From assembly GCA_900319485.1 (NCBI GenBank), contig ONOQ01000003.1, positions 1,223-65,222 of the forward strand: DNA of 64,000 nucleotides. The letters are read 5' to 3'. Source of the stretch: an uncultured Bacteroidales bacterium (GTDB lineage: Bacteria; Bacteroidota; Bacteroidia; Bacteroidales; UBA932). Position numbers and translations under genes: made by a program. The notes beneath the pieces are model-generated. The model was given only the letters and a program-made list of their open reading frames with translations. It did not search any database and was not told the DNA's origin. Below, piece after piece: positions 2,493 to 46,606 of this stretch (position 1 is the stretch's first letter; every line of letters starts with the position of its first letter).

Positions 2493-5400
2493 TTAATTCC
2501 ACTGGTAATCTGTGTAGGTTACGGTGAAGGATGACAACCTGAAGGTGGTGTAGCCACTCCTTGTCATTGTAATGTCAAGAGACTTCACAGGATTGGTGCC
2601 GCCCTTGGTCCAGGTGGTGGTTGTTCCCCACTCCATAGTACCGTTTGATGCAGAACCACCATTAGGTCGATAACCATTACCTGTAAACTCAAATGATGCA
2701 TTAGTTATTTCATAAACCTTCGTGCCGTCAGTGGTGAAATGCAACTGTGTACCACTGCCAAAACGGATATGGTTCGTGCTGCTGGTAGAGTTCAGGGTTC
2801 CTTCAAAGGTTGCAGTGATACCGTTTCTTGTATCAGTCAAGGTGCTACCTGAGTACACGCGTCCACTGCCGCAAGGGAACGTTACCGTCTGGCCGGTGCG
2901 CAGGGTAGCCTTACGGTGGGTAATGGCCACGGACTCATCGGCATAACTGGTCCTGGAGGCCTTCACGGTAAACAGCACGTCAGAGGTGGTGTAGTTGACG
3001 GGCATCGTGAGCGTGATGGTGGTTCCGGCGGTATCGGTTGCAACTCCGGTGGTTCCGAGAGGCGTGGAAATGCTTGCGCCATCGCCCTCCACGGTAAGGT
3101 CGCAAGGGAGTTCGGAAACCAGTTGGATTGTTGTAGTGGTTGCATTACCTATTACCGAGGTTGATGCTGCGGTAAGTGAGAACGCCGGTGTTCCTGCCTG
3201 AACTATGTTACCGGTAGCCACAACTATTCCGTCCTCATTGCAAAGGTCAACCCTGATGGTGCGGTTGGCGCCGGTAGTGTTGGCCGGCAGGGTGAGGGCT
3301 TCATTATGGACTGCGGCTGCTGCCACGTCCTTTGTGAACACAGGACTGGAATCACCGGGAACGTAAACCTTCAGGACGGTAGGGAAACTGGAGGATACGT
3401 TCGCATTTGCAGATGTAGCGCTCATCCAGATATTGCTGTCCACAATATTCAGTGTAGCAGTACCGGCAGCCTGGGTAACGGTGACGGAGTTGCTGTGAAA
3501 GCCGTTGTCACCCGTGACGGTATAGGTTTGAGGCTGCAGCCTGTTATTCACGGGAACAGTGAGGGTAACAGCATTGGCTGAACCGGCAGGGCCGCTTGAA
3601 GGAGACACGCTGGCGCCGCTGAGAGTACCGTTCACAGTCAATGTCCACGCTGCCTCGGAATCTACATTGATAGATGCCGAAGTGGTAGTGTTGCCAATAT
3701 TGGCATTGGCGGTGGTGAGTTTGATGTACGATGTTCCCAGTTGCGTCAATGTCTTGGATGCAAGGACATCTCCGGTAGAAGTGTCGCACAGATTCACGAT
3801 GATGTGACGGTCAGAGCCTGTACCATTGACCGGAATGCCGGTAATTGTTTCATCGTGTCCTGCCGTTGCGGCAATAGCAGCAGTGTAGATGGGTGTGTCA
3901 TTACCCTGAACGTAGGCCTTAAGGTTGGTGGCAAAACTGCTGACCAGATGTACGCTTGCCGATGTATCGGACTTACGGAGTTCATCGTTGGCGGCAGATA
4001 CGCTTACCACACCGGGCTCCTGGGTGATGATTATATCTTCCCAAACAGTACTGCTAAGGTTACGTGCACGCACCGTGAACCTACGCTCGTGGATTGTAGT
4101 GTTCTGAGGTATGTTTACATTATAATTAGTAGGACCTGTTGTAGGCGTTTGATCTGCGGATGTACTGAGAACATTTCCGCCTTCATCAATGAGTTCAATG
4201 ACATAAGTTGTGCCGGACTCAACGGTGACGGTCACCGAGTTGTCGCCGTTATCAACTGTAGTTGTTGCCGATGTCAGCTTCATCATAATGCCTTCCTGTG
4301 TAATGTAGGCAGTACGGACAAGGCTGGATGAAGTGTTGGTGAGGGTGACCAGATAACGTATTGCATTCTCCGTCACGTTCTCAGGCAGGGTAACGCTAAC
4401 ATCCTGTCCTGCGGTTGAACTGCCGCTGGAAGGACTGAGGGATGCGCCGGCAGCCACGCCGCCATTTGCCATAGAGATATTGAGCACCCAGTTTCCGGTA
4501 GATTTTACCCTGACGGTGGCAGCAGTGCCGGAGACAGTCTGACGGTTAGGCGTGATATTGTTGTTGGCGTCACCAGTCAGGGTTGTCTGGGCGGTGGTTA
4601 CACCGTAAGCATCGGTTTTGAAATACTTGTTATAGACATACACCGTAGAAGTGGAGAAAGACTTGGTGGTCTCAAAATCACAAGTGAGGATTATGTCGTC
4701 ACTGCCGGAAAGTTCTGCGTTGTTCTTCAGGCGCTGGTATTCAGACCAGTTGAGGGTGCGGACAAAGCAGTATGAAGACTCGTCGTTTCCGGAAAGCGAC
4801 TTGAAGGGCTCTTCCAGATTCTCTATACCTGTGGTTTTCACGGGCATATTTTCATTGGAAGCAGGATTCAATGCCTTGGCGCTGTCCTCAATCAGGATTT
4901 CCATAGGGAACATGGAAGCCTGAAGGTCCCAGGGAAGTGGAATACTCAGGGTTGTGAGTTGCCCTTTTTCATCTGCAACAGTAGTGGGCGAGAGAGAGGG
5001 AGATATGTCCTTGGCGTTGAACACGCGGATTGTAACCATACGGACAAGCCTGTAGGTGTCTCCGCCGTCGTTATACGTTCCTACCAACTGCAGGGTGGAA
5101 GAAAGTGTGGACGTACCATTGGGCTCATTTAGCGTATAGTTAACATAACGCTGGTCGTTTGCGCTGTCGCTGCCGTCTACGTCCAGCGTTTTAATGGCAT
5201 TGCCTTCTTTCTCGGTAACCGTAACGTTCCCGTTAAGGTTGCCGCTGGCGGCACCGTTCAGCAGGAACTTGTACCAGAATTTCTGGCTGTCAGCAGTGTA
5301 TACCCAGTCGAAGTTGGGCTTCTCTACATAAAGACGGACAACACCGTTGGAAACGTCGGGAAGGGTGCGGGTATCAAGGGAAACGGAGAAGTTGCTTCCG

Positions 5401-6527: not shown

Positions 6528-8840
6528 TCAAAATGTGTCATTGAGGCCGGTCTTGTATCCAAGCCATCTGCTATTAGTATAGGTGGAATGAGTGTCTCCC
6601 CAATACCAGGTATCGTAGACGCAACGGACATAACTGGTATACGTATTTGATCCAACGGTATAACCAACAGAACCGGTATTAGCTGTAACTCCTGAAAGGT
6701 CTACGAATAAGTCGTTACCAGAGCCATCCTTTACATAAAGAAGTGCCCCTGCTGCCCAATATCCGTTTGTGGTGCTTGGGTTGAAAAGCGAAGGGATTTT
6801 ACTGTCGGTATTCAACTTCTGCAGGAAAAGAATCTCTGCTTCTGTGGGGATGCGCCATCGTCCGGCGGGATATCCATACTCCTGATAAGCGGCGCATCTC
6901 TTCTTTGCTCCCTCGTAAGTCACAGGAAGAGTTTTTCCGTAAGAGGAGGCAGAGATGAATTTGGGCGAAATTACGTTCTGAGTATTTTCTGCCGCAGGAC
7001 GGTATTGGGTCAGTGGATCACCTGCATCACCCCCGTTCAAAACGGAACTGTATTCATCGGTGGCGGGGCCGCGGGGATCTCCAAGCACAGTGGGAAATTC
7101 CACGCCGTTTGCCAAAGGCGTGAATTTAAGAATAGTGGTGGTAACGGAATAGATGTTAGGGTTCTGATTATTGGCATTCAGATCTACAGGTGTACCTACA
7201 GCCGTATTATTAGGGCTTATAGAGCCTAAATAATGAGGTTGATAAGTAGATGTAATGTTTCCGGTAGTAGATTGACCGGAATTGTCCCAAACATTTATTC
7301 TGCTAGTTGTGGTTGATCTTCCATTAATATACACGTTGGGCTTGCTGTCGTCGTCGTTTACCGTATTGATATTTGTAATATACAGCGGCGGATACTGCGT
7401 AACCTTCAAGGTTTTGTCGTACTGCCCAATGGCATCATTTGAAAGTTGCAGGACTATGGTATATGTGTAAGGCGACACGTCATAGGTTGTTCCTGTGAAA
7501 TCGTAGTCCAGCGCATGGCTGATATGGATATAATCGCCCTCGGCTGCTTTGGCAACGTCTGTGCCCGGATCCAAGGTCATGTGTGCGCCGGAACTGTAAT
7601 CCTCATAATCCAGTTGTTTGCTGCGGATAGAAACGGCTCCGCTTGCAAAATAAGGTATATCAAGCGTATTTCCGTAGAACTTGATATCCATGGGATCCGG
7701 TACATTCACGTCAAGATAATAACCGGGAGACATGGAGGAGGTAATATTGCTTCCTGTTCTCCAGTCCAGTACCTGATAACCGCAGGGGACGTTCACTGCA
7801 TCGTCATCGGCATCACCGCCCAGCTGGGTGACGTCAAGGACAAGGTGATACCAGTTATTGCTTGCAAAGGCGTTGGTGGGGAGCATTACCTTATAATAAT
7901 ACTCCTTCTGGGATTGCTGCACTATTCCGGAAGTGCTTCGGGAAAGTTTCCAGGGAACTATGAGTTTAAGGTAAGGCTCCGTGGCCGAACCGTAAGACCA
8001 AGTTTCCGGATAGGTATAGAACGACGCACTTGAAAAAGCAGTAGAGAAATCGGCTTTTCCAGATATGGCTGTATTGTTAATATTTGGATAATATTCAAAT
8101 AAGGTATGGTTTGCGTCAACACCGCCCACGAGGGCTTCCGTGGTACCGTTGCAAAGGTACACGCGAATATTGCTGCCTTCGGTGAGAGGGGTCCAGACTT
8201 CGGTGACGTGCCCTTTGTCGTGATGGACCTCATCCTTCAGGTAAAAATCCATTGTAACCTTGGCAGGGAGACGCTTAAGTTCAACCTGAGCTTCACCTAC
8301 CAGATTCTGACCGAGAACAGGAGCCACATGGATGTTTTCTGCCAGGCCTGTCATAACAAGGCAAAGGTCCTCATCTTCGGCCGGCATTATGTTGCCGCCG
8401 GCTTCTTGGGTGAAAGTGCGGTGGGAACCCTCGCTTAGCGCAAGTGCCTGCAAAAATGCCATAGTGGTTGGGTTGCCACTGTCATAGAAGTCGGATTCCG
8501 GACCGGGATAGTTTGCGATAGAGAATACCTTATATTCACCGTCCGCTATAGCCGAGGCTTGAATGAAGCAGGTAAAATAGGATTCAATCTCCGGAGAGAA
8601 GCGCGAATGGTGCCTGAATTCAGAGTAGTGATTGCTAAACAGGAAAACGTCCAGCGTTTTGATAAGGTTTTCGTTGCCAACGCCGGGTTTACCCGTCTTG
8701 GTGTTGATGTCCCCGCAGGTAAAAGTGAGGCGGATTCCGTTTTCACTTGAAACGTCCTGCCCGGGCTCCGCTACCTGCTGGCACGCGGCGATTGAAAGAA
8801 GCGCTGCAAAAACTGCTATTATACTGATTGACTTTTTCAT
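6528..8840 (-). CDS. Type V pilin-like lipoprotein with C-terminal DUF1566/FISUMP-like (lectin-like) domain; candidate tip adhesin
   Basis: 770 aa with lipobox LSIAAC and an INTKTG motif. The C-terminal 145 aa read ..KKRCAAYQEYGYPAGRWRIPTEAEILFL...NGYWAAG...YVRCVYD. This matches the WR(L/I)PT...YW...RCV(x)D pattern of DUF1566 and the Fibrobacter major-paralogous domain. Confidence 0.65.
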   Translation of the reverse strand: MKKSISIIAVFAALLSIAACQQVAEPGQDVSSENGIRLTFTCGDINTKTGKPGVGNENLIKTLDVFLFSNHYSEFRHHSRFSPEIESYFTCFIQASAIADGEYKVFSIANYPGPESDFYDSGNPTTMAFLQALALSEGSHRTFTQEAGGNIMPAEDEDLCLVMTGLAENIHVAPVLGQNLVGEAQVELKRLPAKVTMDFYLKDEVHHDKGHVTEVWTPLTEGSNIRVYLCNGTTEALVGGVDANHTLFEYYPNINNTAISGKADFSTAFSSASFYTYPETWSYGSATEPYLKLIVPWKLSRSTSGIVQQSQKEYYYKVMLPTNAFASNNWYHLVLDVTQLGGDADDDAVNVPCGYQVLDWRTGSNITSSMSPGYYLDVNVPDPMDIKFYGNTLDIPYFASGAVSIRSKQLDYEDYSSGAHMTLDPGTDVAKAAEGDYIHISHALDYDFTGTTYDVSPYTYTIVLQLSNDAIGQYDKTLKVTQYPPLYITNINTVNDDDSKPNVYINGRSTTTSRINVWDNSGQSTTGNITSTYQPHYLGSISPNNTAVGTPVDLNANNQNPNIYSVTTTILKFTPLANGVEFPTVLGDPRGPATDEYSSVLNGGDAGDPLTQYRPAAENTQNVISPKFISASSYGKTLPVTYEGAKKRCAAYQEYGYPAGRWRIPTEAEILFLQKLNTDSKIPSLFNPSTTNGYWAAGALLYVKDGSGNDLFVDLSGVTANTGSVGYTVGSNTYTSYVRCVYDTWYWGDTHSTYTNSRWLGYKTGLNDTF

Positions 8841-37995: not shown

Positions 37996-39303
37996 CTAAG
38001 CCCTTGAATTGGCTAAATGACGCTCAATTCTAGCCCTTAAATTTGGTTCCAGCGTGTTCAGAAAGGCTAATCCCTTTTGTGTAAGGAGATACTTCTGGCG
38101 TGGGTGACGAGGTGAATTAGGATACAATAACGAAACCATTCCGCTATCCACTGCAGGTGTAAGGTACAGTTTAAGGAAGTTATCCCGTCCTTTAAGATGG
38201 AGGCGCTCCATTATATCTTTTACGGACAAAAATTCCTCCCCAATTGCTACTGTAATGAAAAGAAGGTTGGGATTATCCAAGTTGTTCTCTTCCTGATGGG
38301 GCTGAATTTCTTCTTTTTCCTCCGGTTCTTCAATAATATCTACAAATTCAGGTAGGAAATTTGGCGAAATTGCAATTTCTGGCTGTTTTGTTTCTATTAT
38401 TGCATCCGCTTCACTTGATTTTTTCTCGTCCTTATCTTCAACTTTTCTTTCCTCTTTCTTTACCTGAACTTGTCCTGTACTTGTATTATTGTTAACCTTT
38501 GTTTGAGTGCTCCACTCTGCAGCCGGACGGACGTGAACGAATCTGTTCCTAAGATCCCATTGTTCAGATAGCAGCAGGTTCCTGAAAAAGCGCTCCAAAT
38601 ATATGGGTTCATAGCCTATATTCTTCTCAATATTCCTATAATTTGCCCTTACAAGTGCGTTGTGGAAGTACCACGAATCATTTTCAAAAGTATTAATTTT
38701 GTAACTAATGCCTAAATGACGTAGGTATAGAAGGGTGAAAACAGCCGTGAATCTAGTATTTCCTTGTTCAAATGGACATATATGCCAGAGCTTTGCTATG
38801 AATGCAGCAATGTGCGATATTAGAGTATCTGTTGAAGAAGAATTGTATCTAAATCCTTTCTCTTCTTCAAGGCATTCTTCCAGAGCATCCTGCAGTGATT
38901 CCGGGTTAGTGAAGCTGACTATATCACCGCCAAGTACCCATTCTCTTTTTGAAACATCTATTTCCCTTTGCTCTCCGGCGTTTTCAAATACTCCGTGAAA
39001 AATGTTTCTATGTAGTGTTGCAAGCCCAACTGCGCTAAAATCAAATGTTTCTGAGAGTAAAATCCTTACTGTGTTTATTGCTACTTTATCGGCCTCCTCC
39101 TTTTCAGGATCTCCAATATCGTTTGCATTCCTTTCAAAATAGTAACTTGTTACCTGCTCCTCTACTTCATTGAGGTCTATCTTGCCACTTATGTTCTTCT
39201 TGGAGAGCTGCCAAAGATATTCCGATGTCCTTAATCCATCGGCGGCTTGTATTCCTATTGCTGTCTGCCAGGCTGTCTCTATTTTGTTTACCGTTTTAGT
39301 CAT
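37996..39303 (-). CDS. Fic/Fido-fold protein with degenerate active-site motif, acidic linker and C-terminal winged-helix-like domain
   Basis: 435 aa. The core LWHICPFEQGNTRFTAVF compares with canonical HxFx(D/E)GNGRxxR. The linker is Glu/Lys-rich (KKEERKVEDKDEKK...EEPEEKEE). The C-terminus ..SPRHPRQKYLLTQKG.. resembles wHTH tails of Fic and RecG-like regulators. The gene is AT-rich. Confidence 0.75.
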   Translation of the reverse strand: MTKTVNKIETAWQTAIGIQAADGLRTSEYLWQLSKKNISGKIDLNEVEEQVTSYYFERNANDIGDPEKEEADKVAINTVRILLSETFDFSAVGLATLHRNIFHGVFENAGEQREIDVSKREWVLGGDIVSFTNPESLQDALEECLEEEKGFRYNSSSTDTLISHIAAFIAKLWHICPFEQGNTRFTAVFTLLYLRHLGISYKINTFENDSWYFHNALVRANYRNIEKNIGYEPIYLERFFRNLLLSEQWDLRNRFVHVRPAAEWSTQTKVNNNTSTGQVQVKKEERKVEDKDEKKSSEADAIIETKQPEIAISPNFLPEFVDIIEEPEEKEEIQPHQEENNLDNPNLLFITVAIGEEFLSVKDIMERLHLKGRDNFLKLYLTPAVDSGMVSLLYPNSPRHPRQKYLLTQKGLAFLNTLEPNLRARIERHLANSRA

Positions 39304-39367: not shown

Positions 39368-40321
39368 ATGAATTTAAGAGAACTCGTTTTAGCCTTTGTT
39401 GCGGTGCTGTCTGTGGCCTGTGGGACAAAGAAAGTTCAGGCTCCGGTGAGCCAGACCCGTGCGTTTCCAGCCGCTGAAGTGCCCATGATGATAACCGAGC
39501 CCTCAGAGCGCATTGCGTGGCTGGGGGAGCATTTCTGGGACCGCTATACCGCTACGGACCACCTCTATTACTCCGATTCCGTCACCGTGAACGGAGTGTC
39601 GCTTGACGATCTTGAGAAGCAGGTGGGCATCTTCGCCACCTTGATCCAGCAAGGTGCTCCGGAGGACGGAGAAAAGGCAATGACGGCTCTCTACACCCGT
39701 ATGGAGGCATTCCAAACGGCATTTATGGGGGCCAATCTCCTGCCGCAACTCACCGGCCTCATCACCCGGTACTTCTATGACCCCAACTCGCCGTTAAGGA
39801 GTGAGGAACTGTACCTGCCTTTTGCAAAGGCCATGGCCGATTGCCCCCTCATCGAGTCCCTGGACCGTCAGCGCTATGCCCGCGAGGCCAGGCTGTGCGC
39901 CCTGAATCGGCCCGGAACGCGCGCGGCAGACTTCCGTTTCATTGACTCGGCCGGTCGCTCCCGAACGCTGTACGGGATCAAGGCCGATCTTCTGCTTCTG
40001 GTTTTCGGAAACCCAGACTGCCACGCCTGCAAGGAGTTGCAGGCTGCCCTGGAGGCCTCTGAAGACCTTTCTGCGACTATTGCCTCCGGGGAACTGAAGG
40101 TGGTGGATATCTATATAGACGAGGACATCGACGCCTGGAAGGAGCACATCCCCCAGTACCCCGCCTCCTGGATCAACGGCTATGATCCGGACTTCGTGAT
40201 CCGCACGGACCTTGTGTACGACGTCCGCGCCGTGCCCTCGCTTTATCTACTCTCGGCCGATAAAACCGTCCTCCTCAAGGACGCCACCCCGGAGCAGTTC
40301 TTTGCCGCCATGGGGATGTAG
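39368..40321 (+). CDS. DUF5106-like / thioredoxin-fold (TlpA-like) lipoprotein
   Basis: Lipobox LSVAC, with a C-terminal thioredoxin-like LLLVFGNPDCHACKELQ (CxxC). The start is set at ATG 39368 (MNLREL). The track uses TTG at 39359. Confidence 0.75.
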   Translation: MNLRELVLAFVAVLSVACGTKKVQAPVSQTRAFPAAEVPMMITEPSERIAWLGEHFWDRYTATDHLYYSDSVTVNGVSLDDLEKQVGIFATLIQQGAPEDGEKAMTALYTRMEAFQTAFMGANLLPQLTGLITRYFYDPNSPLRSEELYLPFAKAMADCPLIESLDRQRYAREARLCALNRPGTRAADFRFIDSAGRSRTLYGIKADLLLLVFGNPDCHACKELQAALEASEDLSATIASGELKVVDIYIDEDIDAWKEHIPQYPASWINGYDPDFVIRTDLVYDVRAVPSLYLLSADKTVLLKDATPEQFFAAMGM

Positions 40322-40363
40322 GGGATAGTGCTTTGCGCTGCTCCTGTTCCGTCCCTTGGCCTG

Positions 40364-40500
40364 GCCGTGTTGACAGTTAAAACACGTATAAGGCCGATTT
40401 CACTGCCCACACGGCAAGGAAATCGGCCTTTTCCCGTCAAAACGCTGCCGTGTCGGTCCCCAAAACACCGTTATACGCGTTCTGCGTGTCGACACGGCAA
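40364..40500. repeat. 137-bp structured repeat, copy A
   Basis: It begins GCCGTGTTGAC and ends GTCGACACGGCAA, forming terminal inverted repeats. It contains the perfect 12-bp hairpin AAGGCCGATTTC...GAAATCGGCCTT. By hand alignment there are about 11 mismatches in 137 nt versus copy B. Confidence 0.9.
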
Positions 40501-40536
40501 TTGTATTATCTACTTGTTTTAGTAATATTTAATTAT

Positions 40537-40544
40537 TACATTTG
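40537..40544 (+). promoter_or_regulatory. -7 promoter box (TACATTTG) for the HTH gene
   Basis: Exact TAnnTTTG, 16 nt before the ATG at 40561 and in AT-rich sequence. Confidence 0.5.
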
Positions 40545-40560
40545 CAAAAAAATAGATATT

Positions 40561-41250
40561 ATGAATCAGATATACTTTGAAGCAAGGGGAGAAGAACTGC
40601 TAGGGAGAATAGGAATGACCAAGAGCGAGTTTGCACGTAGAATGGGAATAAGGAAACAGAATGTGAAGGCTCTGTTCAAATCCAAAAACCTGGATACTAT
40701 CTACAAGGCAGCAGGGGTACTGGGCGTACCATTTGAGATGTTAATAGGATATGTGGTAGAGCCGGATTTGATTAAGCACCCGCTTGAACAGTTTGAGGAA
40801 AGGGAAATAATCTCAGAGGATGATATTCCAAGGGGGAATACTCCAGAAGAGAGGCGTAACCGTCACGATATCATCTTCAATTTTTACCAAGACTGGAAGC
40901 GCCATAATCCTGATCAAAAGAAATACAATATTTGCCTGAAAGAGGACATTAATATCAGGTCTGTTTCCATTGATGAGACCGCGGCGCAGGCATCAATCTC
41001 TTACCTATCTACGCTAGCAGTCCTTCAGTTGGATGCAGTATTGACCAATGCGTGGCTGTTAAAAAGTGTTCCTTCAAAAGCAGATAGTAAGAATCAACGT
41101 CGCTTCGAAAGTATGTTGATAATGGAATATGTTTGCCAGGGAGTCGGTCGAGTTAAAATGACTGTTGGGGTCAAGCGCAGTGACAAATCAAAGGTTCAGT
41201 ATTGCATCACGGCAATAGACACAGACAAAATAAAACAGGAGGCTGAATGA
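40561..41250 (+). CDS. XRE-family HTH protein fused to an uncharacterised ~150-aa C-terminal domain
   Basis: The start is set at MNQIYFEARGEELLGRIGMTKSEFARRMGIRKQNVKALF, a Cro/C1-type HTH. The track ORF from 40450 runs through repeat A and the promoter. The gene is AT-rich relative to its flanks. Confidence 0.8.
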   Translation: MNQIYFEARGEELLGRIGMTKSEFARRMGIRKQNVKALFKSKNLDTIYKAAGVLGVPFEMLIGYVVEPDLIKHPLEQFEEREIISEDDIPRGNTPEERRNRHDIIFNFYQDWKRHNPDQKKYNICLKEDINIRSVSIDETAAQASISYLSTLAVLQLDAVLTNAWLLKSVPSKADSKNQRRFESMLIMEYVCQGVGRVKMTVGVKRSDKSKVQYCITAIDTDKIKQEAE

Positions 41251-41407
41251 CCTCCTGTTATCTTTGCCCCAAGACTACGTGGCGGAATTACTTCTTGAGC
41301 GAGGGCCTCGCGGGCGGGGACTTTTGCGCGACTCGATTACCCATCCGTAACACGTTTTATTATCTCGCTGCAAAGATAGCAATTATTCCTTGAATCTCAA
41401 AGGGATT

Positions 41408-41544
41408 GCCGTGTTGACGGTTAGAATGCGTATAAGGCCGATTTCACTGCCCACACGGCAAGGAAATCGGCCCTTTTCCGTCAAAACGCTGCCGTGTGGG
41501 TCCCCAAAACCCCGCTGTACGCGTTCTGGGTGTCGACACGGCAA
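41408..41544. repeat. 137-bp structured repeat, copy B
   Basis: It has the same orientation and length as copy A. It starts 13 nt beyond the stop (41557) of the convergent pilus operon 2. Confidence 0.9.
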
Positions 41545-41556
41545 AGAGGACGCAGT

Positions 41557-44500
41557 CTACAAATCCCTGACGCAGCGGGGCTTTTTAAACTTCTGGCCCA
41601 GAGCCATAAGAAGGTGCCTGGAACTCATTCCCCAGCCATAATAGGTTGGCGCTTTTTGGGAACCTAATGCGCCAAAAGACCAGTAGGTACGGCTGAAGGT
41701 GCCGTCAGAGTCGCTGGAATTGCCCAGATATACCGAATCTCCAGTTGTCAATGCCGAAAGGACCGTCCACATCAAAGATACTTCCCTGGCATTCGGCAGA
41801 CGGTACCCTTCAGGGCAGATTCTGAATTCGCTATCCAGATCAGGGAAGCAGGCATTGAGGTAACTGTTGATGCCGCTGAACGTTTTCAAATCATAAGTGG
41901 TACCATTGAATATGCGCGTATCCACGGTTTTCAGGTCTATTACCGGTGCCGTTCCGAATTTACTGGACAGGCAGGCCATCTTGCTATGTTCGTCGTGACC
42001 TACGAGTTCGTGGTCCACTGGTTCGCGAAGTGATGTCAGATTGATGTGAGAACAGTCGAATTCAAAGAAGGTCCGGTCGTCGTAGGCTCCGGTATAGGGG
42101 CTGGTTACCGTCCCATCTTCATTCCGGTGCTTGCGTGTCAAGAGCACGTAGGGGTCCGTCTCGACAGTGGGCTCGGACAGGGTAATGTCTTTCCGCTGTC
42201 CTCCATCCAGATAATAACCAAGATTACGGACGCAGCGTGTGCTGAACTTGGAGGTCTGATCGGACCCAGTGTAATCCATATTACTGCCGTTTACTCCCTC
42301 TTCTGCCCAGACAATACGGGGATACTTGTTGCTATTGTTCCAGTCGGCCTTCTCTTGAGGAGTGTAAATATAGCGGTTACTGGCTATAATGTGCTGACGC
42401 CATTTATCCTTATTGGACTCGGCTTGATCTGACGCATTACGCTGATAAAGCCTGGCGTCACCCTCAATCCCATAGGACCCCAGAAACACGCCAATCAGTT
42501 GGACGTCGGATGCCATATACCACCGTATCTCTTCCGGATCTATAAAACCATCTCCATCGTTGTCCCTGTTTCGGGACAGGCAACTGTAGCGGAGGTAGTC
42601 ATAATCAGAAAGCAGGTGCGGCGTTTCATTGGTTCCGGTGAGATCGAGATAATCGTCCCAGCGGGGCAGGGATCCCGGCTTTTCCGTTCCGTCCGGATTC
42701 AGGATGCCCCAGAGTTTCAGGGAGTTGATTCTTCCGTTGGTCGCACTGGTATTGCCGCAATCTTCAAGATTCTTATTCTTCCAATAATAGGAAGCCCCGG
42801 TCTCATTATCGTCGTCCGTAAACTCCATTCCCCAGGCGGACTGGAGGGTGGCAACCTCGTGAACGGCATAGATGCTCTGGATGGAACGCTGCTGAAGGGT
42901 AAATGATGCACCGATCATATTGCTTTCCCCGTCAGGAGATTTGGCCGATGATGCCAGAATGTGCATACGCCGCATCGGGTGGTTCACCACCAGTTTCCAT
43001 AGCGTTGGATCATATCCGCCCTTAATGGGGTGTTCCTCGTAGTAATACTCGTTGACAAAGGCTGTGACCGAAATCTTAGGGTCGGTATCGTTGTCAAAAT
43101 CGCTCTTGGGGAGGGACGGATCGGCCAGATGGAGGTCGTACTGGCTCTTCTGGTGCTTGATGTACTCCACAAGTTCGTTGACGTACATTGTATGGCCTTT
43201 GGTACCGGGGGCTATTCCAAGTTCGTCATATTTCTCCCAATCGTGAGGTTCGTAGAGAACACGATTGGGAGAGTACTTCCCGTCTCCTCCAAGGGAATTT
43301 ACGTGGAACTCAACCCATTTGTAGTCTATGTCGCTGAGTTCAAGACCATCGTTCGGGCCGGCGCCTTCAGGGTTGAAAGGCGTCTCCACGTACCAACTGA
43401 TCTGGCTGGGGTCTATAAGGTTGGCGTGGAAGGAAATCACCTGGGTGCTGTAGTGGCAGTCACTGTCGAATACCTCCTCTTCAGCCACGACGACGCGTCC
43501 CGTTGCGCCCGGCTCATTCTCTGTGCCAGTTTCAACTTCTGTCTTGATATCGTCAGACCCATTAATGTAAATCTTATAGGTGTAGTTGTGGTTGCGGAGT
43601 ATGTTGAAGTCGGCATTGTCACTGGCGAAATTGCCCAGATGGATCTTGTACTTCACATTGGCATCCAGAGTGGCATTGGCATTGGAACCGGATGTGACGC
43701 CCATTACTATTTTCCCGGTCATCACTATGTATGTAGAATACTCACTAGCATACCGCCAGCCCTGGTTGAGTCCTGTCCCATCCTTTATCTCCAGTTCCCT
43801 GTGGGAATAGTTAAAAGGAGAGGGGAGGGGATCTCCAGAACGGCCATAGGGTGCTTTGCGGTTCTCCATCATATAGAAAGCAAATCCGTAGCAGGAGGCC
43901 TTGGTGACACCATCGTGATAAAAAACGAAGTTGGAAGGATTTTCAGGGTCCTTTGCCAGTTCTTCTGTCTCAAATCCAAGTTCCGGAGTAGAAAAGAACT
44001 GGCTGGCATCTGTGGCTGCATCAACGTATGGGGTTGAGGTCCGTTCCATCAAGTACGAGCAAGTGGGGACGTTTACTACATACCATTTGTCCGGAACAAA
44101 CTTGCGTATGCCAGCGGCCGCCCCAGCTGTTCCTACCTGTACTTTGAATGAAACTTTTGCATAGAGCCGCTTAAGGTGAAGTGTGTTTTGGCTGATGTCA
44201 TTTGGATCCGACGTATTGCCCAGAATATCTACTCCGGTAAGTTGCCCCGTCATAAGGAAATACCCGGAATTGGCGGCTATCTCACTTCTGACCTGTGTGG
44301 CAACAACGCTATTGAGTTCTCCATAAGTCTTTATGGTGGAGAGGATACCGGGAGAAACGTCAAGGTCGTCAGGGTTCATATTTGCTACGGCAACTACGGT
44401 ACATCCACCCTTCTTTGATGTCCTGATATGCAGGGTGCCGGTAGTTGTTGTGGTTTCAGGATTGTCAGACGAGGTCAAATTGTTAACTGTCCACCAGTTA

Positions 44501-44796
44501 TTCTCAGTGCTCGTTCCCAGGTTGCTTCCGTCGAAATAGTGGCCGTATATCTTTTTCCCATCACTGCCGAATATGAGAAGATACATATTGAACACGTGGC
44601 TCTCATCTACCAGGGAAAGATGCGCTTTTGTGGAAACGGTGACACCTGTCCCCTGCGGCGCTCCAAAGGGAATTACAAGGTCTATCATCTCTCCTTCCCC
44701 TTGGTAAGAATAATGTTCATACTCGCGGACGCAGCCCTGGAAAAGGACGGCTGACGTTATGATGAGAAGGATTCTATGGAGAATATACCGTTTCAT
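41557..44796 (-). CDS. Giant type V pilus-associated lipoprotein with C-terminal DUF1566/FISUMP-like lectin-like domain; candidate tip adhesin
   Basis: The start is set at MKRYILHRILLIITSAVLFQGC (lipobox), 7 nt after the upstream stop. The track adds 22 aa. It has a VSTKAHL motif and a DNDGDGFIDPEE calcium-binding-like loop. The C-terminus reads ICPEGYRLPNAREV...TYWSFG...KKPRCVRDL. Confidence 0.65.
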   Translation of the reverse strand: MKRYILHRILLIITSAVLFQGCVREYEHYSYQGEGEMIDLVIPFGAPQGTGVTVSTKAHLSLVDESHVFNMYLLIFGSDGKKIYGHYFDGSNLGTSTENNWWTVNNLTSSDNPETTTTTGTLHIRTSKKGGCTVVAVANMNPDDLDVSPGILSTIKTYGELNSVVATQVRSEIAANSGYFLMTGQLTGVDILGNTSDPNDISQNTLHLKRLYAKVSFKVQVGTAGAAAGIRKFVPDKWYVVNVPTCSYLMERTSTPYVDAATDASQFFSTPELGFETEELAKDPENPSNFVFYHDGVTKASCYGFAFYMMENRKAPYGRSGDPLPSPFNYSHRELEIKDGTGLNQGWRYASEYSTYIVMTGKIVMGVTSGSNANATLDANVKYKIHLGNFASDNADFNILRNHNYTYKIYINGSDDIKTEVETGTENEPGATGRVVVAEEEVFDSDCHYSTQVISFHANLIDPSQISWYVETPFNPEGAGPNDGLELSDIDYKWVEFHVNSLGGDGKYSPNRVLYEPHDWEKYDELGIAPGTKGHTMYVNELVEYIKHQKSQYDLHLADPSLPKSDFDNDTDPKISVTAFVNEYYYEEHPIKGGYDPTLWKLVVNHPMRRMHILASSAKSPDGESNMIGASFTLQQRSIQSIYAVHEVATLQSAWGMEFTDDDNETGASYYWKNKNLEDCGNTSATNGRINSLKLWGILNPDGTEKPGSLPRWDDYLDLTGTNETPHLLSDYDYLRYSCLSRNRDNDGDGFIDPEEIRWYMASDVQLIGVFLGSYGIEGDARLYQRNASDQAESNKDKWRQHIIASNRYIYTPQEKADWNNSNKYPRIVWAEEGVNGSNMDYTGSDQTSKFSTRCVRNLGYYLDGGQRKDITLSEPTVETDPYVLLTRKHRNEDGTVTSPYTGAYDDRTFFEFDCSHINLTSLREPVDHELVGHDEHSKMACLSSKFGTAPVIDLKTVDTRIFNGTTYDLKTFSGINSYLNACFPDLDSEFRICPEGYRLPNAREVSLMWTVLSALTTGDSVYLGNSSDSDGTFSRTYWSFGALGSQKAPTYYGWGMSSRHLLMALGQKFKKPRCVRDL

Positions 44797-44803
44797 AAAT
44801 GAA

Positions 44804-46606
44804 TCATTTGAATGTGTGGGACGATTCGGAAGGAGTGGCCCAAGTGCTGTTATCCACATCAAAATTCAGTGTAGCTTCCTGGTCAGCGTAGAAGACATTG
44901 ATGACAAGTTTAATGTCCTCGTTGCGGGTCATATAGGTTAGGGGTACTTCCTTGTGGTTTTCTTTGAGGATTCGCCGCAGGGGAGCGCCGAAACGATATC
45001 CAAACAAAGCAAATTGAGCATCCTGCCGAGTTGCGTTGTTGGAAGGCAATTTCAGGTTTGATTCCTTCTGAGGGTTACTATCCCATCTTGCGTCAGCCTG
45101 AACATAAGAATTACTACCAATCTTGAATCGAACAAGTTTCCCTGCAAAATCTGCCGGGTTCTTATCCTTGACTACAGCACCATCTTCCACCGTTATTCCA
45201 GTAATAGAAGTTCCGCTACAGACTCCGTTTGCATTATTTGGTTGTAAAGCTAATCCCTCTATAGTGAACAGCCCTCCGGATTTTGATATACGATGGAAAT
45301 ACGTGTTTTTAACTCCAGTATAGGAAAAAGTGGCGTCTTGTTTTGCGGCAACGGCCGTGAGCCCGGACCAACCAGAATAGCCGTTCGCCTTAGAATAACT
45401 ATATCTGGAAGAATAATCGTATGAACTCTCTTCATCATAAATGGCTTTGGCCCGGTTAAAATAATCATTGTAATTCGTGTAGCCGGCACTTTCCCACGCC
45501 ATATAATTATTCTCGCTTATGTGTGTAAATATACGTCCGGAGCGTACATTAATTTGCGGATTCATTACCAAAACAAACATATCTTCCCCGTCGTCCATAG
45601 CCGAAAGGGTCGCATAAGTGACCAAATCGAACTTGGTTTGGAGCGACATCTGTTGCTCCTTGGAGCCTGTGGGGTCAAGAGTTAGTGTTGCAAAAACCTT
45701 ATACGAATCAGGGTATGCGTTCTCATAGAGGAGCGTCTCATACACCAGGTATTCTTCCTCATAGCCGGAAGCCCCGAATTCGGGGGCTGTTTCAAGAGAA
45801 GAAGACAGAATCGGGTATGCCGGCAGTGGTCCGTAAGTTACCCCTGAAGGAACCGATGGAACGCCGTTCTCATCGCTCCGGCCGATTAAATATGCCCTGT
45901 CTGCGTTGAATTCGCTGAACTGGAGGTCATCCAGACGGACCGGGTAGGGAGTGGTGTTGTTGATGTAAACGCGTAAACGGACCACGGGCCGTTTAAGATA
46001 GATGGTGTGGGTCTCCACGGACAGTCCCACAAGGACTTCGGTCTGTCCGGTAAGCAGCATGGCACTTTCTCCGGCATCAGCAGGTTTAACGGGATTATCG
46101 GCCTTAAGTTCCCGTTCAAGGAATGCGGAGAAATCTCCGGAAACCATTTCCTTTTCCTGACCAGAAGCGGAAATTTCCTCCCCGCTCTTCTGCCAGGCCT
46201 CGGCATCTATATTCGCATAGGCATAAGCGGTGTAGTTGCCCGGATTCAGATGTTCGAAGTGTATAACGTCATCAGTCAGGGAAGTCCCGGTCACTTCCTC
46301 CTGATTTGGATCATTGCCGGAGGCATCAGGATCATAAGGGTATTTCTTGTAAACATTTCCCACCACATTGTTGGAATGGTCCACCAGAATTACAAGGACG
46401 TTTTTGAAGCGGAGACCGTCCAGAAGGTCATCGGCATCGGTCTTGGTCTGAAGGGATATTGCGTCACGGCTTGAAAGCCTGAACACGGCACTGCATTCTC
46501 CTGCAATGCCATCAACAGGTTCCTGTTCCTTCCTGCAGGCAAAAGCAGCAGAGAGGAGTACTATCAAAGCCAGTATGAATCTTACCTTTCTCATTCTATC
46601 CTTCAA
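44804..46606 (-). CDS. Pilin-like accessory lipoprotein (600 aa)
   Basis: Lipobox SAAFAC with an LQTKTDAD motif and beta-rich composition. It overlaps the upstream gene by 11 nt. Confidence 0.55.
   Translation of the reverse strand: MKDRMRKVRFILALIVLLSAAFACRKEQEPVDGIAGECSAVFRLSSRDAISLQTKTDADDLLDGLRFKNVLVILVDHSNNVVGNVYKKYPYDPDASGNDPNQEEVTGTSLTDDVIHFEHLNPGNYTAYAYANIDAEAWQKSGEEISASGQEKEMVSGDFSAFLERELKADNPVKPADAGESAMLLTGQTEVLVGLSVETHTIYLKRPVVRLRVYINNTTPYPVRLDDLQFSEFNADRAYLIGRSDENGVPSVPSGVTYGPLPAYPILSSSLETAPEFGASGYEEEYLVYETLLYENAYPDSYKVFATLTLDPTGSKEQQMSLQTKFDLVTYATLSAMDDGEDMFVLVMNPQINVRSGRIFTHISENNYMAWESAGYTNYNDYFNRAKAIYDEESSYDYSSRYSYSKANGYSGWSGLTAVAAKQDATFSYTGVKNTYFHRISKSGGLFTIEGLALQPNNANGVCSGTSITGITVEDGAVVKDKNPADFAGKLVRFKIGSNSYVQADARWDSNPQKESNLKLPSNNATRQDAQFALFGYRFGAPLRRILKENHKEVPLTYMTRNEDIKLVINVFYADQEATLNFDVDNSTWATPSESSHTFK

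Follow-up and report, generated by a model that had tools for sequence, protein, structure and literature searches.

The window, that is, the whole 64-kb stretch of DNA that was analyzed, harbors two copies of a 137-nt repeat, U1 (40364-40500, plus strand) and its sister U2 (41408-41544, plus strand), which bracket a 907-bp module, M (40501-41407), and are themselves enclosed by two convergent protein-coding genes. The left flank gene (39368-40321, plus strand) encodes a lipoprotein with DUF5106 (Pfam E = 7e-26) and Thioredoxin_8 domains, and its stop codon lies 42 nt before U1. The right flank gene (41557-44862, minus strand), the last of a minus-strand fimbrial operon, encodes a large Mfa/FimA-like fimbrial (tip) protein with weak matches to P_gingi_FimA and DUF4906, and its stop codon lies 13 nt past U2. 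Neither a recombinase nor a transposase gene was found in the window, in agreement with the preliminary description of the locus, and no RAYT-like gene was found there either; the only match at the Rfam gathering score (Rfam 15) in the window is a tRNA at 2190-2261.

A repeat search of the window aligned U1 and U2 over 137 nt each, in direct orientation and without gaps, at 92% identity (126 of 137 positions; blastn E = 2e-53), which reproduced the coordinates, orientation, length and 11 mismatches given before, and scans with the family HMM and with motifs found no further copy of the 137-nt unit in the 64 kb. The unit is a REP doublet (REPIN-like), composed of two hairpin modules of ~52 nt whose starts are 82 nt apart (in U1, module A at 40364-40416 and module B at 40446-40498) and whose outer feet, GCCGTGTTGAC and GTCGACACGGC in U1, pair together. 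Both copies are strong imperfect palindromes, with plus-strand RNA minimum free energies of -61 kcal/mol for U1 and -75 kcal/mol for U2 (z-scores of -7.0 and -8.9 relative to dinucleotide-shuffled sequences); folding of the minus strand is similar. About 8 substitutions are private to U2, three of which mend mismatches of the long hairpin, against about 2 private to U1; the asymmetry is not significant (binomial p ~0.11), and the excess could reflect another source of U2. Nothing credible in Rfam matched the repeat, either at the gathering score or at E up to 10, the best scores being at chance level (mir-1421, 26 bits against 45; DUF2693-FD, 17 against 44.5). Covariation is almost absent as well, with one of 23 pairs compensatory, and the repeat as a conserved structured RNA was rejected for want of support in the alignment; similarity of the copies through a conserved non-coding RNA unrelated to the gene between them, which the preliminary description had considered, does not apply here.

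The bracketed segment is AT-richer than its surroundings, as had been noted, with GC values in 200-nt windows of 0.33-0.47 against 0.56-0.63 in the left and 0.49-0.56 in the right neighborhood, and the GC of module M as a whole is 0.42 against 0.49 in the 5-kb flanks. Low GC marks the cargo family in all of its hosts and gives no evidence of recent arrival. The single real ORF of the segment is the cargo gene (40561-41250, plus strand), which is preceded by a predicted promoter (40514-40544, plus strand), read from the sequence according to the established Bacteroidetes-type consensus, with a -33 TTG at 40514-40516 and a -7 box TACATTTG (TAnnTTTG) at 40537-40544; the TTATTACCTTTG box is kept in homologous loci. 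The encoded protein of 229 aa contains a putative N-terminal Cro/C1 (XRE) HTH and a C-terminal domain of ~140 aa. The Pfam matches to the HTH are below threshold (HTH_3, 20.7 bits with a cut-off of 23; HTH_26, 20.9 bits with a cut-off of 22; E ~4e-4), as is that of LPD3 to residues 111-188 in the C-terminal domain, and transcriptional regulators of PHROG match at E = 2e-5. Foldseek matched Cro/C1/SinR domains to the HTH with probability 1.0 in an AF2 model of only 60 overall pLDDT, and the C-terminal domain of this weak model gave no fold match. A PDB profile search with the protein was empty. A total of 1376 homologues were observed, the best 120 of which share 72-81% identity. A viral origin of the cargo was rejected, with no relative in IMG/VR and only generic HTH matches in PHROGs and PADLOC.

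Convergent with the cargo gene lies a structured sRNA gene (~41228-41366, minus strand, with predicted ends), which the preliminary description missed; the promoter box and the one gene named there are both present. Its predicted promoter (41371-41401, minus strand) has a -7 box TATCTTTG, the reverse complement of 41371-41378, and a -33 TTTG, the reverse complement of 41398-41401, and both boxes are kept in nearly all of 63 aligned loci, even amid unrelated flanks. The sRNA adjoins the gene in about 80 of 84 module loci at 73-96% identity, above that of the ORF, and no variant of it matched Rfam. Its covariation is extensive, with 97.5% of cells paired and 12 pairs showing compensatory changes, whereas slid controls reached 38-49% and none of 500 shuffles was as good. 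Helix 5 of the sRNA alignment, with compensatory changes in six of nine pairs, is the hairpin CAGGAGG-N8-CCTCCTG (41236-41257), which spans the cargo stop codon, is followed on the minus strand by a T-run (41227-41235), and is predicted to act as the terminator of both the sRNA and the cargo gene. A small ORF of 48 aa (41247-41393), predicted by gene callers, was discarded, as a stop codon breaks its frame in one homologous locus (L105) and conservation of the region is at the RNA level.

The module was also found at 84 other loci, all of them without the 137-nt unit, and no unit lies beside the module in these loci or in the closest homologues. The stretch conserved in other genomes is ~40511-41404, with homology to the 84 loci extending from ~40513 to ~41394, and the module boundaries are sharp and constant across dozens of contexts. 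The cargo is a self-contained unit of a putative XRE-HTH gene and a convergent sRNA, each with its own predicted promoter.

The left-gene orthologues precede a single repeat in three related loci (L084, L035 and L101), and the right-gene orthologue abuts the single unit in two of them, L101 (96% aa identity) and L035 (67% aa identity). These two relatives, at ~90-93% identity, therefore present empty sites, with the left flank, one unit and the same right flank AGAGGACGCAGTC, from which module M is missing in the alignment. On their outer sides, U1 and U2 join the flanks at the same positions as the single unit does, and the duplicated stretch is exactly the repeat, without an additional nucleotide at either end. 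Since relatives hold one unit between the same convergent genes, the module is a gain of the window lineage, which came with an exact duplication of the repeat. The preliminary description had listed insertion into, or duplication of, a pre-existing element among its explanations and had proposed a search for a single repeat without the module; the two empty sites supply the latter and support the former.

All same-species contigs spanning the site are occupied and 99.7-100% identical, with both repeat copies unchanged, and no empty/occupied polymorphism was seen among them; the arrangement is fixed in the species. One contig (L011) follows the window arrangement only as far as the sRNA, within which it diverges toward an ADP-ribosylglycohydrolase gene; it was considered as an alternative or empty allele, and a join via a second sRNA copy is judged more likely, because one contig of the same study (L013) and contigs of close homologues (L189-L191) end inside or just short of the sRNA. 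The repeat pair is now an old fixed arrangement and no active cassette, and excision by recombination between the repeats, proposed earlier, is possible in principle but has found no support.

A genome scan with the terminal feet placed the 137-nt repeat in a multi-copy, non-coding intergenic family of uncultured gut and rumen Bacteroidales, present in at least 9 MAGs with several copies in each; 57 copies, ascertained by their exact terminal pattern, were examined in 48 loci of 10 MAGs, all of them intergenic. The family counts come from these relatives, the window itself having two unit copies in 64 kb, and such a survey of copies and cargo, also proposed before, revealed a unit that is not specific to the cassette. 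For 31 of the 57 copies, an ORF of 200 aa or more has its 3' end no farther than 50 nt away. The doublet length varies from 133 to 137 nt; the feet read GCCGTGTTGAC / GTCAACACGGC, with terminal inverted repeats of 11-13 bp and no GTAG or CGTC head, and no direct duplication was visible in the 5-nt flanks of 37 aligned copies. The single hairpin also occurs in head-to-tail tandem arrays with periods of 82, 83 and 93 nt. Neighboring full-length pairs in other genomes, which are direct or inverted and bracket housekeeping genes, were mutually closest among the sampled copies of their own genome in eight of nine cases; units 1.2-3.2 kb apart share identities of 0.89-0.96 against at most 0.84 for other copies, in within-genome comparisons that rest on few copies per MAG. 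One RGIG7961 contig carries three sister units in series, and the serial gene-plus-unit modules differ between relatives, a 3.2-kb block being present in RGIG7961 only and not in RUG722. The findings suggest that the repeats mark small-scale rearrangements in uncultured gut and rumen Bacteroidales, among them insertions, inversions and breaks of synteny located precisely at the ends of units. Metagenome assemblies, too, are broken by these repeats.

An ORF of 304 aa adjoins the units in relatives; its gene is bracketed by hairpins, in a REPtron geometry, in L099, L194 and L196 and abuts the unit in L103/L061, and it was observed in relatives only, including a MAG with an empty site. The protein has no sequence match in Pfam, NCBIfam or PDB, and a call as Y1 transposase failed by sequence and succeeded by fold comparison alone. 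The best fold match of its AF2 model (pLDDT 86) is 4ER8 (E = 4e-4, probability 1.0), the structure of the REP-associated tyrosine transposase (RAYT) of E. coli with a bound REP hairpin, and IS200/IS605 TnpA structures are the next matches. The protein shows T-HVH and YILRNG motifs and a C-terminal extension of ~170 aa, and the candidate HUH histidines (H50 and H52) and tyrosine (Y107) are invariant. On the modeled fold, the protein is a divergent RAYT-like HUH tyrosine transposase, putatively cognate to the repeat family. Indirect signs that the enzyme acts on the hairpin and that units are mobilized may be read in L194, where both feet have changed together and co-vary with the enzyme, in the sister pairs and in the arrays. 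Because hairpins flank a RAYT-fold protein in relatives, the family is regarded as a REP/REPIN-RAYT-like system.

U1 shares 94-95% identity with the single orthologous unit of the relatives, and U2 89-91%; together with the three orthologous units, U1 and U2 make up a clade of 98% bootstrap support, all other sampled members being at or below 84%. This places U2 as a local sister of U1 and not as a foreign family member. The MITE idea of the preliminary description holds in so far as non-coding multi-copy REP doublets occur with a RAYT-like gene in relatives, and is not supported as an account of how this site arose. That two independent MITE insertions formed a composite, or that unrelated terminator or ncRNA copies surround a resident gene, is very improbable. 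A MITE-like unit could in principle mobilize the DNA between two copies, as the bracketed RAYT-like gene illustrates, and the position directly after stop codons would suit a terminator; but the empty site already holds one unit with identical outer junctions, so that no unit-module-unit block was inserted whole, the gene is absent from relatives and hence not resident, U2 is a local sister, and the unit has no Rfam family and almost no covariation.

We regard insertion of the module at a REP-doublet site, with duplication of the unit in place, as the best explanation as a whole, tentatively and at slightly less than an even chance. The ancestral state would have been one unit between the convergent DUF5106 and fimbrial genes, probably as the 3'-end hairpin of both. 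A self-contained module of 0.9 kb would then have entered the window lineage precisely at this unit, which was duplicated in full and in place, each flank gene keeping its own copy at the original distance. The duplication, we infer, came about by cutting and filling: the unit would be cut at its two ends on opposite strands, either by the RAYT-like nuclease, with the hairpin feet as its recognition sites, or by a structure-specific nuclease acting on the base of the extruded hairpin, and the 137-nt overhangs would then be filled in around the captured DNA.

The sister relation of neighboring units also accords with two separate events, in which the module landed at the precise end of a resident unit and RAYT-driven short-range copying, of the sort that the family seems to perform around ordinary genes in other places, later carried a unit past the new gene; this is possible, though we consider it rather unlikely. 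Neighboring units are the closest copies in their genomes, in direct or inverted orientation around housekeeping genes, and may stand three in series, as on the RGIG7961 contig; moreover, IS200/IS605-type enzymes work on single strands at replication forks, an activity that favors local reinsertion. However, two events would be required, both nucleotide-exact at their junctions, and the outer junctions of U1 and U2 match those of the single unit. U1, and not U2, is nearest to the orthologues, neither copy resembles a fresh derivative of the other, and the pattern of sister pairs could also come from gene conversion between neighbors.

Improbable, in our estimate, is a Campbell-type event, in which a circle carrying the module and a unit recombined with the resident unit, by a RecA-dependent or a site-specific route, and could be excised again, a reading likened to IS26 translocatable units, pdif modules and integron cassettes. 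The direct repeats, the exact junctions and the single-unit empty site fit its geometry, the serial gene-plus-unit modules vary between relatives (the 3.2-kb block of RGIG7961 against RUG722), and 137 bp suffices for homologous recombination. However, a unit from another locus would be expected at 84-85% identity at most (closest relative RUG784), whereas U2 is at 92% and in the local clade; none of the 84 other module loci carries a unit, which leaves no known donor configuration; the same-species contigs show neither empty/occupied polymorphism nor altered repeats; and the substitution pattern of U1 and U2, compared with the orthologues, is unlike that of a single-crossover chimera, which was rejected.

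In unrelated contexts, too, the module stands between direct repeats of target DNA, 13-59 nt long, and the duplication may therefore stem from insertion of the module and not from the repeat. A small element mobilized in trans, making long target duplications of variable length, for which the repeat was merely the target here, would build on this, yet we give it a slim chance. Flanking direct repeats were observed in L162 (56-59 nt), L165 (30 nt), L167 (20 nt), L166 (13 nt, the 3' end of tRNA-Ala) and L153 (~110 nt, diverged), with strong direct matches at six loci in five contexts against one strong inverted match, and the sharp boundaries are unchanged over dozens of contexts. However, a duplication of exactly the size of the repeat is unexpected from a stagger blind to target structure, a flanking repeat is missing at most module loci, the L162 repeat sits in a pre-existing tandem gene array, and no enzyme is known or proposed.

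The locus is a natural example of gene insertion at REP-like repeats and not a new kind of mobile element. A Bacteroidales repeat family is now defined by its unit, its arrays and an enzyme undetected by profile libraries, and a matched pair of empty and occupied sites shows gene insertion at a unit, all 137 nt of which were duplicated exactly. The cargo, a widespread putative HTH protein with more than 1300 homologues and a structured sRNA outside Rfam, is a candidate new RNA-protein module. It is a speculative and improbable extension that REP doublets and the RAYT-like enzyme serve as a gene-capture and shuffling system in these Bacteroidales; if so, genes would be inserted precisely at units with unit duplication, giving series of gene-plus-unit modules that could later be inverted, lost or moved, the window would record one capture against the empty site, and the whole would amount to an integron- or pdif-like cassette system on HUH chemistry. 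To our knowledge, almost all work on REP/REPIN-RAYT systems has concerned Proteobacteria. The Bacteroidetes literature that was found describes only Y1 genes 'flanked by atypical secondary structures' (PMC6006769).

Among known systems, integron attC cassettes, Acinetobacter pdif modules and IS26 translocatable units resemble the locus in having a single gene within structured direct repeats, an empty site with one repeat, and serial gene-plus-repeat modules that vary between genomes. They differ in that the second repeat here arose by local duplication instead of being imported, with no mobility seen and no integrase, Xer-type 11-6-11 site or IS26-like transposase. The R''/R' cores of attC are RYYYAAC / GTTRRRY and integron cargo is promoterless, whereas the unit ends lack these cores, the cargo has two predicted promoters of its own, and the window has no integrase. 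A DDE MITE bounded by terminal inverted repeats shares such termini (11-13 bp) with the unit, which, however, shows no target-site duplication in the 5-nt flanks of the 37 aligned copies. With bacterial interspersed mosaic elements (BIMEs) and the IS200/IS605-derived PATEs, the family has in common arrays and mosaics in which hairpin units are set apart by spacers of fixed length, and non-autonomous derivatives made from the hairpins of transposon ends. In BIMEs, which bind IHF and gyrase, the REPs alternate in orientation, whereas the arrays here run head-to-tail at periods of 82-93 nt.

TnpA-Y1 subclass 2.6 (Bertels group 5) of Bacteroidetes is also 'flanked by atypical secondary structures' (Quentin et al. 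2018, PMC6006769), and it shares with the present family the phylum, a Y1 HUH gene amid unusual hairpins and further hairpin copies elsewhere in the genome. Its proteins have ~179 aa and NH[LIV]H and YIH[QN]NP motifs and are detected by profiles, whereas the 304-aa protein is much longer and fails those profiles.

Also among the closest known systems are REP/REPIN elements with their RAYTs, as in E. coli and Pseudomonas (Bertels & Rainey 2011, PMC3116915). The hairpin here is ~52 nt and the doublet 133-137 nt, compared with 20-40 nt for REP; a conserved GTAG (or CGTC) tetranucleotide is the criterion for a REP head (PMC3733652), and these units have neither. The enzyme of 304 aa, with its ~170-aa C-terminal extension and its T-HVH and YILRNG motifs, is missed by Pfam Y1_Tnp, the host belongs to Bacteroidales, and neighboring copies are sisters that bracket genes. 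REP elements with RAYT were reportedly treated by Nunvar in 2010. What the two systems share is short extragenic palindromes, multi-copy here in the relatives surveyed, whose doublet forms one long hairpin, which lie near the 3' ends of genes, can cluster and persist as orthologous copies across related species, and repeats that bracket a cognate HUH Y1 gene, with hairpin and enzyme changing together (L194).

A repeat search recovered two 137-nt copies of a hairpin-forming unit exactly where the preliminary description had placed them, U1 at 40364-40500 and U2 at 41408-41544, which are in direct orientation and align without gaps at 92% identity (blastn E = 2e-53), and no third copy was found in the 64-kb window by the family HMM and motif scans. 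Both copies are imperfect palindromes, with plus-strand folding z values of -7.0 and -8.9 relative to shuffled sequence and similar values on the minus strand, and the unit consists of two hairpin modules of ~52 nt whose starts are 82 nt apart, with the GCCGTGT/ACACGGC motif occurring four times per unit. The AT-richer character described for the segment between the copies was borne out by measurement; in nearly all hosts the cargo module (40501-41407 here) is AT-richer than its flanks, with a mean GC across hosts of 0.44 vs 0.52, indicating that the contrast is a family trait.

Among the hits of the repeat family, the orthologous locus was recognised in three relatives, each with a single unit. 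The order in L101 (SRR873595_bin.33, ~93% identical) is the end of the thioredoxin-like gene, one unit and the fimbrial gene, and L035 (90% identical on the left and 70% on the right) has the same order; L084 (RUG784, 94%) carries the Fic gene, the DUF5106 gene and one unit, its homology to the window ending exactly at the unit end. L101 and L035 are therefore empty sites, holding one repeat and lacking the 40501-41407 segment, and the suggestion of an insertion into, or duplication of, a pre-existing element was right. The outer junctions of the single units equal those of U1 and U2, and the right flank AGAGGACGCAGTC is identical in the alignment, which indicates that the window lineage gained 40501-41407 with the complete unit duplicated, nothing more or less. 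U1 shows 94-95% identity to the orthologous units and U2 89-91%, and these five copies form a clade with 98% bootstrap, while all other sampled copies, including further copies in RUG784, the closest relative, are at most 84-85% identical, so that U2 represents a local copy rather than an imported family member. U2 has ~8 private changes and U1 ~2, an inequality that is not significant, and the 8% divergence between them is close to the flank divergence of 6-7%, indicating an old event. At the left junction of U1 (40354-40368), TGGCC is present in tandem and is single in both empty sites; the doubling may be a footprint, or slippage may simply have produced it.

The same-species contigs spanning the site are all occupied and 99.7-100% identical, with no mobility of the present pair seen among them; the insertion of this regulator-plus-sRNA module is old and fixed. 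The exception is L011 (10795-11997, ERZ28613025), which follows the window as far as the sRNA, diverges there at about 41355 and continues into an unrelated ADP-ribosylglycohydrolase gene with no second repeat; it is probably a join through another copy of the sRNA at a second locus, a strain variant being the other reading. A contig from the same study, L013, ends inside the sRNA. Of the neighbouring genes, the Fic-domain gene (37996-39303, minus strand) is AT-rich (GC 0.35-0.44), conserved in RUG784 and hits PDC-S72, a candidate defence family of PADLOC (E = 3e-88), and the gene of the 1101-aa fimbrial tip protein shows small indels among same-species contigs (42236-42285, 42557-42640 and ~44770) that alter called gene sizes, ~50 nt of the window being missing from L010 and ~84 nt from L002, with a small indel in L004 near 44770.

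The module contains a single real ORF (40561-41250, plus strand) behind a TAnnTTTG box, as had been described. Of the XRE-HTH fusion ascribed to it, the HTH appeared as a weak Cro/C1 match, alongside a sub-threshold hit to LPD3, whose function is unknown and which was described from polyvalent proteins encoded by phages and conjugative elements (PMC5512222). Homologues of the protein number 1376, the best 120 listed being 72-81% identical, and in 84 other loci the gene stands alone among unrelated neighbours, with no 137-nt unit found next to it. The ~140-nt stretch past its stop codon is conserved above the ORF itself, and conservation and covariation predict a structured sRNA there (41228-41366, minus strand), convergent with the HTH gene and with a predicted promoter at 41371-41401 (minus strand). 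In the sRNA structure 97.5% of cells are paired, with many G-U pairs and compensatory changes at 12 pairs; none of 500 shuffles was as good, and slid controls gave 38-49%. Its predicted 3' end is a hairpin with a T-run over the HTH stop codon, a putative terminator hairpin common to both genes, and no variant tested matched Rfam. Conservation of the module extends from the -33 box of the gene promoter to that of the minus-strand promoter, both predicted. Extra sRNA copies occur in some genomes, some promoter-less and directly after tRNA-Ala, such as L166 (247-461) and L176 (3743-3917), where a second copy lies 1-2 nt after tRNA-Ala(GGC), next to tmRNA; the last 13 nt of the tRNA are repeated past the module in L166, resembling an att pair. 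Another module locus, L144, has a DUF3800-VIII RNA (4101-4167; Rfam RF03075, 48.5 bits) near a tandem sRNA pair.

As the origin of the arrangement, we favour a one-step insertion of the module, in which cuts at the two unit ends, on opposite strands, would leave the unit duplicated in situ, because this best fits a duplication equal to the unit exactly and U2 being of local origin. In other genomes, units that neighbour each other at 1.2-3.2 kb were mutually closest in 8 of 9 full-length pairs, among the copies sampled per genome, and such sister units bracket ordinary genes; a two-step local hop, which this pairing would favour, fits the exact duplication less well and seems less likely. Units also mark places where related MAGs differ by an inversion or indel (L050 vs L103 plus L061; L073 vs L092; L084 at 7874-8000). 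Breakpoint cases comprised an inverted 3.2-kb segment, a 3.2-kb block in one genome only (RAYT-like gene, nitroreductase, oxidoreductase and two units) and a unit-HAD-MFS-unit segment inverted relative to both its flanks. In at least four other contexts, unrelated target DNA of 13-59 nt is repeated directly on both sides of the module, as in L162 (56-59 nt), L165 (30 nt) and L167 (20 nt); L175 also has such a repeat and L153 a diverged one of ~110 nt, and direct repeats around the module are far commoner than inverted ones. Such repeats would suit a mechanism of the module's own, though this appears improbable, as does, to a slightly lesser degree, a Campbell-type integration; one-step insertion is the better fit to the unit-exact duplication.

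The unit is multi-copy in related Bacteroidales, 57 copies having been catalogued by the family HMM, all intergenic; 31 of them have an ORF (at least 200 aa) ending within 50 nt, and 25 within 20 nt. When one genome per species was searched for the two outer ends (feet) of the unit, it turned up in MAGs of uncultured rumen and gut Bacteroidales, namely RUG722, RUG784, RGIG9187, RGIG3360, RGIG7961, Tb.RUG.384, RUG11406, two SRR bins and a Muribaculaceae bin from chicken; the other matches, in GC-rich phyla, were taken as chance. Single hairpins are arrayed head-to-tail with periods of 82, 83 and 93 nt, the 37 aligned full-length copies are conserved in sequence with compensatory change nearly absent, and no Rfam match was obtained. 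With these features and the position near 3' ends, the unit has the profile of a DNA repeat of the REP/BIME type, a conserved structured RNA being unsupported.

One RGIG7961 contig has a unit 3 nt from the end of a 304-aa ORF, which had no match in Pfam, NCBIfam or PDB sequence searches. Most of its 395 homologues come from contigs of 1-2 kb, the length to be expected when repeats lie on both sides of a gene. The AlphaFold model, built from 35 homologues, was confident (pLDDT 86, pTM 0.85), and its top structural match was 4ER8 (E = 4e-4, probability 1.0, TM 0.64 on the target), the E. coli REP-associated tyrosine transposase (RAYT) with bound REP hairpin, followed by IS200/IS605 TnpA structures. 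H50 and H52 (an H-V-H motif) and Y107 are invariant, and the family carries a C-terminal extension of ~170 aa. The modelled RAYT/IS200-like fold identifies the protein as the putative cognate RAYT-like enzyme of the unit family. Its gene was found at L103 7475-8000 continued in L061 1-389, L099 5837-6736, L194 3001-3915 and L196 3001-3915. In L099, from a MAG shared with one empty site, arrays of 5.5 and 6.5 hairpins enclose it; a pair of near-identical ~140-nt doublets encloses it in L194, their feet changed together to GCCGCGTTTACAC / GTGTAAACGCGGC, and in L196 the enclosing doublets have standard feet. In L181 (425-1012), a distant relative of the RAYT-like protein (23% identical across ~200 aa) is encoded directly upstream of an HTH-sRNA module copy. 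The RAYT-like gene amid its hairpins, in the loci examined in relatives, is a REPtron arrangement, and the 137-nt repeat is of the REP/REPIN-RAYT-like kind, in Bacteroidales. Bacteroidetes Y1 genes "flanked by atypical secondary structures" were already known as subclass 2.6 (PMC6006769), whereas the 304-aa protein exceeds them in length, differs in its motifs and is missed by the profiles.
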